Shown here: piece after piece, positions 18,639 through 53,003 of the stretch
How the letters are laid out: the number at the start of each line of letters is the position of its first letter
Numbering within the stretch: the stretch's first letter is position 1
DNA from: Eledone cirrhosa
Lineage: Eukaryota
NCBI GenBank assembly: GCA_964016885.1
Contig: OZ024747.1
Span: 49,662,001-49,726,000 of the forward strand
DNA length: 64,000 nt
Reading direction: 5' to 3'
The notes under the pieces: model-generated
What the model was told of the DNA's origin: nothing
Seen by the model: only the letters and a program-made list of their open reading frames with translations
The model's database searches: none
Made by a program: the position numbers and the translations under genes

Positions 18639-18685
18639 TGCTGACAATCGTTTCTTCCAAACAGCCTTTTGGAATCATCGGAACA
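18639..18685 (-). ncRNA. Minimal type I hammerhead ribozyme (CCGAUGA core) in inverted Penelope terminal repeat
   Basis: TGTT CCGATGA TTCCAAA-AGGCTG-TTTGGAA GAAAC GATT GTC AGCA. Confidence 0.7.
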
Positions 18686-18699
18686 TTGGCAAAGTTTAA

Positions 18700-21460
18700 A
18701 CATAATTAATTCCTATTCAATAAAACTAGTTAAGAACATTAGATGTAGAAAACATTTTAATAGAAACAACACCTTCTTAAATAACCTCAATTCTACTATT
18801 AAAGATTTAATAGAAATAAGAAAATTCTAGTACATGCTGATAAAACTAATAATATATATAGGCTAGATTACGATACATATAGAAAATTTATAGATAAAGA
18901 GCTGCATAAGAGCTATAAGAAAACACTATTAGAAACCTAGACAATATAAATATTGAAGCCATAGTATAGTATGTAAATTAGGACTTCAGAGATATACACA
19001 ACCTTACACCCCTAACCCCCCAAGATTCTCTCTGAAGGACCATAAGGAAGACTAATTTGCCCTTCCTCTATAAGACTAATTTGCCCTTCCAAATCTGACA
19101 TTGGAATTATTAGCAACAAAATATTAGAATCATCCCCCAATTTAGGCAAAAACTATCTTAATCTATGGGGAAATACTGGTGAAGTTATAGAATGGTTCAA
19201 TAATATTAATGAGAATAAAAAAAAAAAAATTATCCAATTTGATATTAATTCGTACTACACCTCTATGTCTCCTATCCTATTAAACAAATCATTAATAATG
19301 GCTATGAATAATAGTGAACTTACTAAATCCCTAATTGATGTCACTCTTGTGGCCCGTAAAACTATAATTGTATTTGAAGATCAATTATGGACCCGCAAAG
19401 ATACACCTAACAACTTTGACATAACTATGGGATCTAGTGACTCAGTGCAGGTTACAGATTTGATGGGTCTATATCTCTTAAATGAAATTCATAAGAATTT
19501 GCCCTACCTCAATGGTGGTTTATACCACGATGATGCACTACTACTTATTGATTATAAAAAATTTAATATAGAAAGAACTAGAAAACAATTGCATAAACTA
19601 TTTAAAAACTTCAACTTAAGTATTACTTTAGATAGAAACACTAAAAACGTTAACTTCCTTGATGCTACCCTTTGCCGGTAGTCTAAAATATATACACCCT
19701 TTCATAAACCAAATGAAAAACTACTTTATGTAGATACCAACTCTAACCACCCTAAATCTATATTAAACTCGTTACTAAAGGAGTATCTAATAGAATAACC
19801 ACTCTATCTTATAATGAAACTATATTTAACAGAAATTCCCAATACTATAATGAAGCTTTAGCTCACTCAGGCCATAAAGATAAAATTAAATTTTTACCTA
19901 AAAAAATCATTTAGTTCTAACATTATTTCACACAATATGGCCATGAATAAAATTAAAAGTAATACAAGTACTGACCACTCTAACTCTAGTATGACGGGTA
20001 ATAACAAAGTTAACTTGCACCAAAATAAACATCCTAATAATAATAATAATAATAAAAATAGAAATATAAACAATACTACAACTAACCTTACAAAAAATAA
20101 TCACAAAAATAGAAGAACTAATACATTTTTCAATCCCCCTTTAAATTTAAATGTTTCTACCAACTTGCCTAAGGCTTTCTTCTCAATTTTAGAAAAAAAA
20201 TTTCCCAGTTGGCCATAGATACCATAATCTTATCAATAAAAATACTATTAAAATCTCTTACTCTACCACACCTAACATTGCGAACCATGTAGCTAGTAGT
20301 AATAAAAGGAAGATTAATAATTATTTCCAAATGATTAAATCACAACATGAGGGGAACTTGCATAACAACATAGTACCGGAGAATTCTAGTAGCAACAATA
20401 ATAATAGTAACAGCACTAATGAAATTAATAGCAATAGGAATAATAATCATCATTATCCTAATACTCTTCCTAACAACCATGCACCTACACACCCTATTAA
20501 CCAGCAAGTAAGCAACCCAAATAACTGTAATTATAGAACAAATAGAACTTGCCCCTTGAGAAAAAACTGCTTAATCAAAGACATTATTTACTCCTGTACA
20601 GTCAATACAAGTAACACTTCGAAAATATATATTGGTTCTACCTCGAACTGCTTTAAGACGAGATATAACTCACATCTTCACACTTTCAAAAATCATAATC
20701 TTAGCTAACTCCACTTCTTTATCTACCTACATACACTCTTTGAAAACTAGGAATAGACCATATATTCTACAATGAGAAGTTATAGATAAGGCCACTTCTT
20801 ATAAACCACTGAATAGATTCTGTAACCTCTGTATTTTAGAGTCTCGCACTATAGTCTATTCTAAGCTAAACCTTTTAAATAAGAAAATCAGAAATTTTTT
20901 CCACGTGTCAAAACTACCACCAACACTCTTTCCACAATTTCAAACCAAGCTGCTAATATATAACAATGTTAGATATATATTCCTCACCACCGTTAACACT
21001 TTACCTCTAGGTTTTATCAGCATAAAATACCCCCACGACATCACATTTTTGTATCTGTATCAGCTCATTCCTTCATTTATCTCCTATTTATCTCAGATCC
21101 TATACTCAATAATAACTATAGAGAATAAACATAAATGTACCACCACTTAATATAACTATATCTTCCTTACTAATATTTTATTCATTTAAGTAATATATAG
21201 GTAAGTAGTGGACAATTGGGACCTTTAAATATTATATAAAAAACAGATTATATATAAAATAAATATAAAAATAAATAACATTTTATAAGGATTTCCTTGT
21301 AATATAATATTATGTATATTAACACATAGAATTTAATTAATAGGATATATAAACAACTAACACCAGATTATATATTTTTCTGTTATGCATAAATAAATCT
21401 TCAATTACCTCCCCTTTCCCATTAGCTCCCTTTAGTGAACATCTCCAATCACTTCCTTGA
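18700..21460 (+). mobile_element. Penelope-like retroelement (RT plus C-terminal GIY-YIG), degraded
   Basis: RT motifs FDINSYYT, FDITMGSSDS..DLMGLYLL, GLYHDD, VNFLD; Cys-rich CNY..CPL..C then IIYSC..KIYIGSTSNCFKTRYNSH. Confidence 0.9.
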
Positions 21461-21499
21461 ATTTAAACCGTTAGACATAACCACACCAACTCGAAAAAT

Positions 21500-52300: not shown

Positions 52301-52673
52301 AACCTACAGTCAGTAGGCACCTCTTAACCAAATATACACCCAATCCACTTCCCCCACTCCATCCTCCCACTCCCACCAACACCACCCTCTCTCTGTAAAG
52401 TTGGTACCACAACATCGAGGTCGTGTAGGTATCACAACAAAAAAATGCACAGTCCATGCTGTAATGTGGCCATGTAGGTAACACGGTAAAACGTTCCCAA
52501 TCCACACTGTAAATGAGGTTGGTGTTAGGAAGGGTATCCAACCATAGAAAACATGCCAGATAGTCTTATATGAGCGAGACACAGTCACCCGATCAACCTT
52601 GCCTCAAATTGGGACAACTCTCGTCTAACCCATGCCAGCGTGGATGATGGACGTTAAACGATGATGATGATGA
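49321..52673 (+). mobile_element. Near full-length RTE LINE (APE endonuclease, RT, PHD insert, 3' tail), disrupted
   Basis: VGTMNVGTL..CCVQETR, SAYAPQ, AGDLNGHVG, SQVDYIL, NYRGIKL, FVDLEKTFDRVP, LLYADDL; (GAT)n tail; several stops and frameshifts. Confidence 0.95.
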
Positions 52674-52956
52674 TATATATATATTGTATATATATATATT
52701 GTATATATATATGTATATATATATATATATATATATATATATATATATATATATATATATTGTATATATATATATATATATAGTTATAAGAATATTTATA
52801 TTTATATATGTTTAATACAATTATAAATATGGAGGGTAGTACTAAGTACTAGCTGGTTACTGGTATGACAACAGGCTCAATGCGAATTATCAAGTGTTTT
52901 ACAGAGCCGAGATACAAAGTGTTGAAACGATCGAATTTTAGTTTAGAACATTTATT

Positions 52957-53003
52957 TGCTGACAATTGTTTCTTCCAGAGAGAAGTCTGGAATCATCGGA
53001 GCA
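52957..53003 (-). ncRNA. Minimal type I hammerhead ribozyme (CCGAUGA core) at a Penelope 3' end
   Basis: TGCT CCGATGA TTCCAGA-CTTCTC-TCTGGAA GAAAC AATT GTC AGCA; adjacent 53260-53280 resembles the Penelope 3' region near 21400. Confidence 0.75.

Follow-up and report, generated by a model that had tools for sequence, protein, structure and literature searches.

Hammerhead-shaped motifs with a lineage-wide C4 core in Hydra-type Penelope-like elements of Eledone cirrhosa

Introduction

The hammerhead ribozymes of Penelope-like elements (PLEs) cut weakly and as dimers (PMC4209133), and their role is stated to be unclear (PMC8557442). A stretch of 64,000 nucleotides from Eledone cirrhosa (assembly GCA_964016885.1, contig OZ024747.1, positions 49,662,001 to 49,726,000; the whole stretch is called the window here) raises the question of what becomes of such a ribozyme when a letter of its core is replaced. 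Two hammerhead-shaped motifs in it read CCGAUGA, with cytidine at core position 4 (C4) instead of the consensus uridine (U4). We asked whether C4 is decay or a family feature, and what the motifs may still do. C4 is the fixed state of a whole Hydra-type PLE lineage, its youngest intact members included. With moderate confidence, we think that the motifs are slowed ribozymes of this C4-fixed lineage, which would cut only as dimers paired through loop 3, probably with the help of a protein.

Two motif copies in the window

The motifs and the element pieces around them are the following (pLTR stands for pseudo-long terminal repeat, RT for reverse transcriptase and UTR for untranslated region).

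18639..18685, minus strand: hammerhead-shaped motif copy 1, with stem I, C4 core, 7-bp stem II and self-complementary loop 3 CGAUUG
18594..18720, minus strand: inverted pLTR stub of 127 nt with copy 1, running about 87 nt beyond core C3, into a (TA)n tract
18719..21181, plus strand: body of a Hydra-type Penelope-like element, 5'-truncated and frameshifted, with RT and GIY-YIG
52957..53003, minus strand: hammerhead-shaped motif copy 2, of a different subfamily, with C4 core, G-C swap in stem II and loop 3 CAAUUG
52768..53126, minus strand: pLTR of copy 2, 93% identical to locus L048, long end type
53112..53701, minus strand: leftover 3' UTR of the copy 2 element, split by a common short repeat (about 53359-53560)

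Both minus-strand motifs are present as the sequence-only reading of this DNA had described them. A descriptor of stems I-III with position 4 left free matched twice in the window and never in 60 simulated 64-kb sequences built on the window's dinucleotide frequencies. Core C3 lies at 18681 in copy 1 and at 52999 in copy 2, with the predicted cuts 3' of 18643 and 52961, and the copies are 79% identical across 81 nt. The earlier placement of copy 1, inverted just upstream of a plus-strand Penelope open reading frame (ORF), was also right: its stub, which has the short end type found on inverted termini, meets the broken sense ORF at the junction 18719/18720. The body that follows has about 80% amino-acid identity to a young intact family, and its 3' pLTR and the remainder of its 3' UTR are missing. 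Copy 2 comes from another subfamily, as the 3' pLTR of a truncated element of its own, and ends about 231 nt past C3, inside (TA)n. Each window copy is single and probably inert, and together they form no natural pair, the orientation being wrong or the distance excessive.

Automated annotation was of little help. Rfam covariance models gave no hammerhead among the 150 of 162 window matches listed, nor, at E 0.01, in three genomic loci (L068, L299, L337); since the canonical U4 motif of L337 was equally overlooked, the miss is not attributable to C4. Pfam assigned no family to the Penelope ORF pieces of the window.

A third hammerhead-shaped motif lies 160 nt from copy 1 (18489-18524, minus strand), with a U3-A8 core, a 4-bp stem II and a palindromic CCGG loop 3. 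It sits in a repeat of a different family (18342-18554) in the same (TA)n tract as copy 1, and copies 92-95% identical to this repeat occur in L011, L012, L024 and L071.

The parent retrotransposon lineage

The RT piece of the window, used as a protein query against the genome, gave 150 scored matches, many of them in open frames of 832 codons with 80% identity. Among the 20 stretches examined around these matches, L068 shows a complete unit: (TA)n, an inverted truncated 3' end, a 362-nt direct pLTR, the ORF, a 1.3-kb 3' UTR, a second pLTR and again (TA)n. The ORF of intact copies encodes RT and GIY-YIG in 832 codons, and full-length copies (L068 and the other intact ones) hold two hammerheads on the same strand, 4.2 kb apart. 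The motif is located in the pLTR, sense to the ORF, and the proposed Penelope link of both window motifs holds. Over the ORF, six intact copies share 98.9-99.8% identity with L068, so this young family appears to have expanded recently.

The lineage protein (P0001) has RWR, DKT, CxCx5C, CxxC and CxH motifs plus GIY-YIG at its C terminus, with no GxKF. The published signature of the Hydra clade consists of an RWK-type motif, DKT, a CxCx5C linker, CxxC, CxH, no GxKF/Y, plus GIY-YIG at the C terminus (PMC8557442). By these protein motifs and its insertion into (TA)n, we assign the lineage to Hydra-type PLEs. Its best homologs in the searches are 33-41% identical, and the named ones are molluscan (Argonauta hians, Solemya velum); trees took in the host genome's copies plus mollusc and other homologs. 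A Pfam scan of P0001 gave no family at useful E-values, and the viral contigs searched held no relative of the lineage.

Core position 4 inside and outside the lineage

Three non-overlapping genome-wide patterns with position 4 free gave 7,627 matches (1,272 of the window type, 4,358 of the young type and 1,997 of intermediate types), and their controls none. C4 followed by G5 was found in 91, 97 and 93 of the first 100 matches listed for the window, young and intermediate patterns, and exact C4 copies in the genome are estimated at about 7,200. U4 occurs 157 times in the whole-genome count of the window type and 36 times among the 4,358 young-type matches. C4 motifs with other starts of stem II, targeted by a fourth pattern, gave 2,399 further matches against 353 in its control. 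Among the young copies the core-breaking change G5A (56) is at least as frequent as U4 (36), which therefore looks like decay of the CpG that C4 created; the same counts led us to reject a separate active U4 subfamily there.

Loci that were not picked for a hammerhead motif tell the same story. A search with the flanks only returned 39 pLTR pieces, and all 34 that reach the core carry C4, although 32 of these are near-identical young copies. Both pLTRs of the intact young copies carry it as well. An assembly error is ruled out, as contigs from 4 public runs of 3 studies show no alternative letter at position 4 at a level of at least 5%. By sequence type, C prevails in 19 of the 22 commonest types, with two ties and one U type that comes from a single inverted pair, in a count that under-samples U4 of the oldest clade because some of its U4 loci were left out. 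A comparison of 12 subfamilies was not used for position 4, since that column is confounded by loci chosen for U4. The suggestion that U4-to-C is a family feature and not decay thus withstood a search with position 4 free: C4 dominates every subfamily group counted, and the family consensus is not CUGAUGA.

The remaining core letters of the consensus (C3-U4-G5-A6-N7-G8-A9, G12-A13-A14-A15.1, U16.1-H17) are all kept. In particular, subfamilies reached by the protein search also retain G5, A6, G8, A9, GAAA, U16.1 and a non-G at 17. Across the 12 subfamilies there is variation at position 7, in loop 2, at 10.1/11.1 and at position 17. The flanks are much less conserved, with invariant columns numbering 13 of 55 upstream and 18 of 43 downstream.

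Outside the lineage the letter is U. A hammerhead was seen in 63 of 78 Hydra-type metagenome loci scanned with position 4 free, and all 63 have U4; the controls gave two matches on the opposite strand and one in five shuffles. U4 is likewise the letter in all 26 Hydra rows of File S2 (PMC8557442). An unrelated Hydra-like family in the host genome also keeps U4 and dominates 14,413 non-C matches (control 2,542). Because these three outgroups keep U4, we take C4 to be derived from it. The U4 family of the same genome (L305-L331, L336, L337) is very abundant, with a 3-bp stem II and an AAUU loop 3, and can serve as a same-genome control.

Several further motifs were noticed. L178, L181, L293-L295, L349 and L350 are older, more diverged relatives with C4, found in a search limited to C4; in L350 a partner copy has C4 as well, and another diverged relative, L311, has U4. 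These relatives do not fix the root of the U4-to-C change. Two more hammerhead-shaped motifs, L296 and L297, have C4 with other stems, and L297, which has a U4 partner copy, may owe its C4 to a private change.

A second family with a relaxed position 4

A second Hydra-type family, with 45-55% protein identity and a short G-C-rich stem II, gave 102 matches (loci L214-L243 and L299-L301, for example L299 at 5121, plus strand, and L300 at 5722, plus strand). Among the first 100 listed, position 4 is A in 59, C in 31, U in 9 and G in 1, and its state tracks the subfamilies: the tree of 40 copies needs 7 changes, compared with 13-20 in 200 shuffles. The single RT fragment linked to U4 branches deepest (96/83), which suggests that position 4 went from U to C and then to A. 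The two relaxed families are sisters at only 84% in the endonuclease tree and are not resolved in the RT tree; one shared origin for the relaxation of position 4 was therefore not upheld, and both one and two origins are possible.

Stems, loop 3 and dimer pairing

Pairing was analysed in 104 natural copies. The paired share of cells was 92.3%, compared with 90.6% in shuffles, none of 500 as high, and 24-44% in slid controls. Helix I is paired at 87% and helix II at 91.5%, in the architecture of a short helix I (4-5 bp) and a long helix II (7-8 bp). The compensatory change in stem II that the sequence-only reading had seen stands as a subfamily-level swap of A-U (70 copies) and G-C (25), with one G-U and 8 unpaired. 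The first pair, 10.1/11.1, is not conserved and reads U-A, C/A, C/U, C/C or A/G by subfamily. The usual G10.1-C11.1 is absent here and often missing in other Hydra hammerheads as well; stem II is thus better drawn from the next pair. The U-G wobble in stem I, which had been offered as covariation, proved to be a minor copy-level variant (8 of 104), and since copy 1's closest relatives carry C it is not evidence of selection.

Loop 3 was rightly described as palindromic (AAUU) in copy 2, but the property is not limited to one copy, because copy 1 is self-complementary through G-U pairs. Both loop 3 pairs are intact in 102 of the 104 copies, in A-U, G-U and G-C states, and 99 of the first 100 young copies listed have a self-complementary loop, in three loop words. 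The words of the lineage (AAUU, AGUU, AGCU, GAUU and GAUC) are all self-complementary and form stepwise paths via G-U, AAUU-AGUU-AGCU and AAUU-GAUU-GAUC; the second family shows ACGU-AUGU-AUAU. Self-complementary words make up 36 of the 256 four-letter words, and only 2-3 of 12 single changes preserve the property. The covariation consists of few inherited events. The loop 3 history nevertheless points to selection for dimers, on those few independent events.

Dimer folding energies were computed for 6 copies. With longer flanks, the double hammerhead was the predicted best dimer of a young copy in one folding run, and in another it came within 0.6 kcal/mol of the best dimer and 10 below two monomers. 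In window copy 2 it equals the predicted best dimer. In copy 2 and in L209 the monomer fold predicted as best has C4-G5-A6-U7 base-paired to loop 3; this shape is inactive and would be stabilised by C4.

Element ends and the proposed mechanism

The 3' ends of the elements cluster at +84 to +94 and at +230 to +250 from C3. With the predicted cut at +38/+39, they fall about 45-55 and 190-210 nt past it. Insertions with a whole hammerhead would hence derive from RNA left uncut at the 3' pLTR, a step that leans on analogy with the element of PMC11167929, in which insertion ends are the starts of reverse transcription. A genomic fossil of cleavage was sought and none was found among 335 pLTR copies.

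Put together, two copies would pair through the self-complementary loop 3, as the changes in this loop and the folding energies suggest. Some residual cleavage would be expected, given that the rest of the core is retained and that U4C viroid variants are in print: U4C lowers in vitro activity yet permits infectivity (PMC3088659), and a citrus viroid-like RNA carries the variant (PMC9608096), in a paper that reports the self-cleaving capability to be unaffected by the viroid U4C change. If the ribozymes are slowed, help from a protein is probable; a Poseidon hammerhead needs a protein, and insertion there mainly uses RNA that has not been cut (PMC11167929). A weaker core would spare more usable RNA template, so the change might have been tolerated or even favoured.

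Several results weigh against slowed, dimer-dependent ribozymes. The 5' ends do not pile up at the predicted cut in the 335 pLTR copies, a sample biased to whole cores. Activity may be nil, given the weak CUGA mutants and a motif without G10.1-C11.1; in a deep mutational scan, single mutants of the CUGA region had low activity (PMC9901934). The search patterns fixed the core columns other than position 4, so their conservation is partly circular. Only 4 pairs change on both sides, and 392 of 500 shuffles match this; the three two-step loop 3 paths have, by our arithmetic and with transitions alone counted, a chance probability of about 0.04. The double hammerhead lies 5-11 kcal/mol above the best dimer in window copy 1, L092 and L005, and 8 above it in L209. 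Finally, the older group has more U4 (157) than G5A (54), with 12% of its copies U4, and in one old clade (n=92; 36 U4, 50 C4-G5, 3 G5A and 3 other) U4 exceeds G5A by 12 to 1, so some U4 source copies may exist, with which concordant inverted pairs are compatible.

The U4 excess in the older group deserves a closer look. Its U4 copies are scattered on the tree (24 changes, compared with 23-35 in 300 shuffles), enriched on smaller chromosomes (22/38 vs 11/42, p 0.006) and found in CpG-poor surroundings (0.48 vs 0.66, p 9e-5). Methylation decay at a hotspot is compatible with this chromosomal location. A strand bias was rejected, as other CpGs decay evenly (7:5, 5:3, 4:2; 5:5), and so was a greater age of the U4 copies, whose median divergence equals that of C4 copies (0.069/0.069 and 0.032/0.032). 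C-to-U RNA editing that restores U4 would fit the excess, but neither its absence in the young group nor the link with CpG-poor surroundings. Whichever the source, the excess leaves the main result on C4 unchanged.

Alternative explanations

The most serious competitor, which we regard as possible but clearly less likely than slowed cutting, is a former ribozyme that no longer cuts and is kept as an RNA structure for dimerisation or protein binding beside the start sites of reverse transcription. Two families of this genome have relaxed position 4, with changes to C and to A, and 10.1/11.1 drifts freely while the self-complementarity of loop 3 persists. Cleavage was dispensable for in vitro insertion in PMC11167929, and the predicted cut site lacks a pile-up of 5' ends. 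Against it, G5, A6, G8, A9, GAAA, U16.1 and a non-G at 17 have all been retained; position 7 and loop 2 vary as they do in working hammerheads, and viroid U4C variants do cleave (PMC3088659, PMC9608096). At the other end of the scale, the ribozyme could be fully active, with C4 or A4 made cheap by a dimer, a long stem II or a bound protein that compensates. The viroid report that U4C does not affect self-cleaving capability (PMC9608096) and the great success of the lineage with C4 speak for this, but U4C considerably decreases in vitro activity (PMC3088659), even canonical PLE hammerheads cut weakly (PMC4209133), and fast cutting at the 3' copy would, judging by the 3' end positions, destroy the template. 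We think full activity unlikely.

A neutral vestige, in which a single ancestor lost its ribozyme to C4 and the motif was then carried along or held by an overlapping DNA signal such as a promoter or an endonuclease recognition site, seems very improbable to us. Three two-step compensatory loop 3 paths over two families, and one such change in stem II, are signals of RNA pairing, and the motif lies outside the ORF, with no overlap; this has to be set against a core conservation that is partly circular, the few independent covariation events and a downstream flank that is itself 42% invariant. Decay of a canonical U4 family in the two window copies can practically be dismissed: the 12% of U4 in the older group would suit it, but these copies are a minority, tree-scattered, no older than the C4 copies and in CpG-poor surroundings, and the intact young copies carry C4, which refutes decay.

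A broader, speculative view, to which we give only tentative credence, is that Penelope hammerheads in this host genome are shifting from ribozymes to pure RNA-pairing signals. U4 would have been given up independently in two families, for C in one and by way of C for A in the other, with compensatory changes that kept the dimer palindrome. Selection would then act on the pairing of the two terminal repeats during reverse transcription, and cutting would be dispensable or harmful. The retroviral dimerisation loop is an analogue for such a role.

Comparison with known systems

Hydra-clade PLEs (PMC8557442) resemble the lineage in their protein motifs, (TA)n targets and sense hammerhead in the 3' pLTR, as well as in the unstable 10.1/11.1 pair, the inverted 5' stub and the optional tail. 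The 26 published rows, in which a different octopus family is included, have U4, whereas the lineage has C4, and its 4.2-kb unit with a 1.3-kb 3' UTR exceeds the published 'generally under 3 kb'; a canonical hammerhead and a length below 3 kb are typical traits of the clade rather than strict criteria. Metazoan PLEs have minimal type I hammerheads (Cervera and De la Pena 2014, PMC4209133) that share the pLTR location, the 4-bp helix I and 7-bp helix II, the palindromic loop 3, the dimer architecture and numerous truncated single copies. They differ in lacking C4 and having G10.1-C11.1; the core variant published there is U3-A8, and the text parts and the one of two supplements examined contain no CCGA core. 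Judged by its letters, the lineage motif resembles the minimal PLE hammerhead but is no canonical member, as it has neither U4 nor G10.1-C11.1. The small dimer-cleaving PLE variants of Lunse, Weinberg and Breaker (2017, via PMC6765202) are alike in their short stem III, dimer cleavage and PLE association. Viroid hammerheads with U4C (peach latent mosaic viroid; CtaHVd-LR1, PMC9608096) show the same change from CUGA to CCGA, but as a rare variant of a monomeric hammerhead with tertiary contacts, while here it is fixed in thousands of minimal dimer-type copies.

U4C as a rare viroid variant and U3-A8 cores of PLE hammerheads (PMC4209133) were known before. The literature and supplements examined, which did not cover the Lunse 2017 alignments, one supplement of PMC4209133 and figures, hold no lineage-wide C4 or A4 retroelement hammerhead, and no report of a natural U4A hammerhead was found, judged on titles and abstract openings. 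We see in these families a natural experiment, in which a core letter invariant in 63/63 and 26/26 relatives has been altered while dimer pairing co-evolves. Matched natural U4, C4 and A4 versions in one genome make cleavage and pairing separable experimentally. As the sequence-only reading foresaw, canonical CUGANGA searches would miss the family: the descriptor used in PMC8557442 requires U4, and descriptors of this kind overlook about 7,000 or more copies in this genome. Reports of PLE clades without hammerheads may partly reflect the descriptor.

Other features of the window

Near-perfect long inverted repeats lie at 5117-5292, around a (TA)n tract, and at 2217-2329; both yield sub-threshold Rfam matches to miRNA. 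The region 32100-34700, with open frames of 500 and 533 codons and Pfam matches in which no single stretch passes, is probably a tandem repeat. Pfam also finds fragments of other mobile elements, with RT, endonuclease, RT zinc-binding and Mos1-type helix-turn-helix (HTH) domains, as follows.

24588-25574: mobile-element fragment
49552-50868: mobile-element fragment
54420-55484: mobile-element fragment
58614-59078: mobile-element fragment

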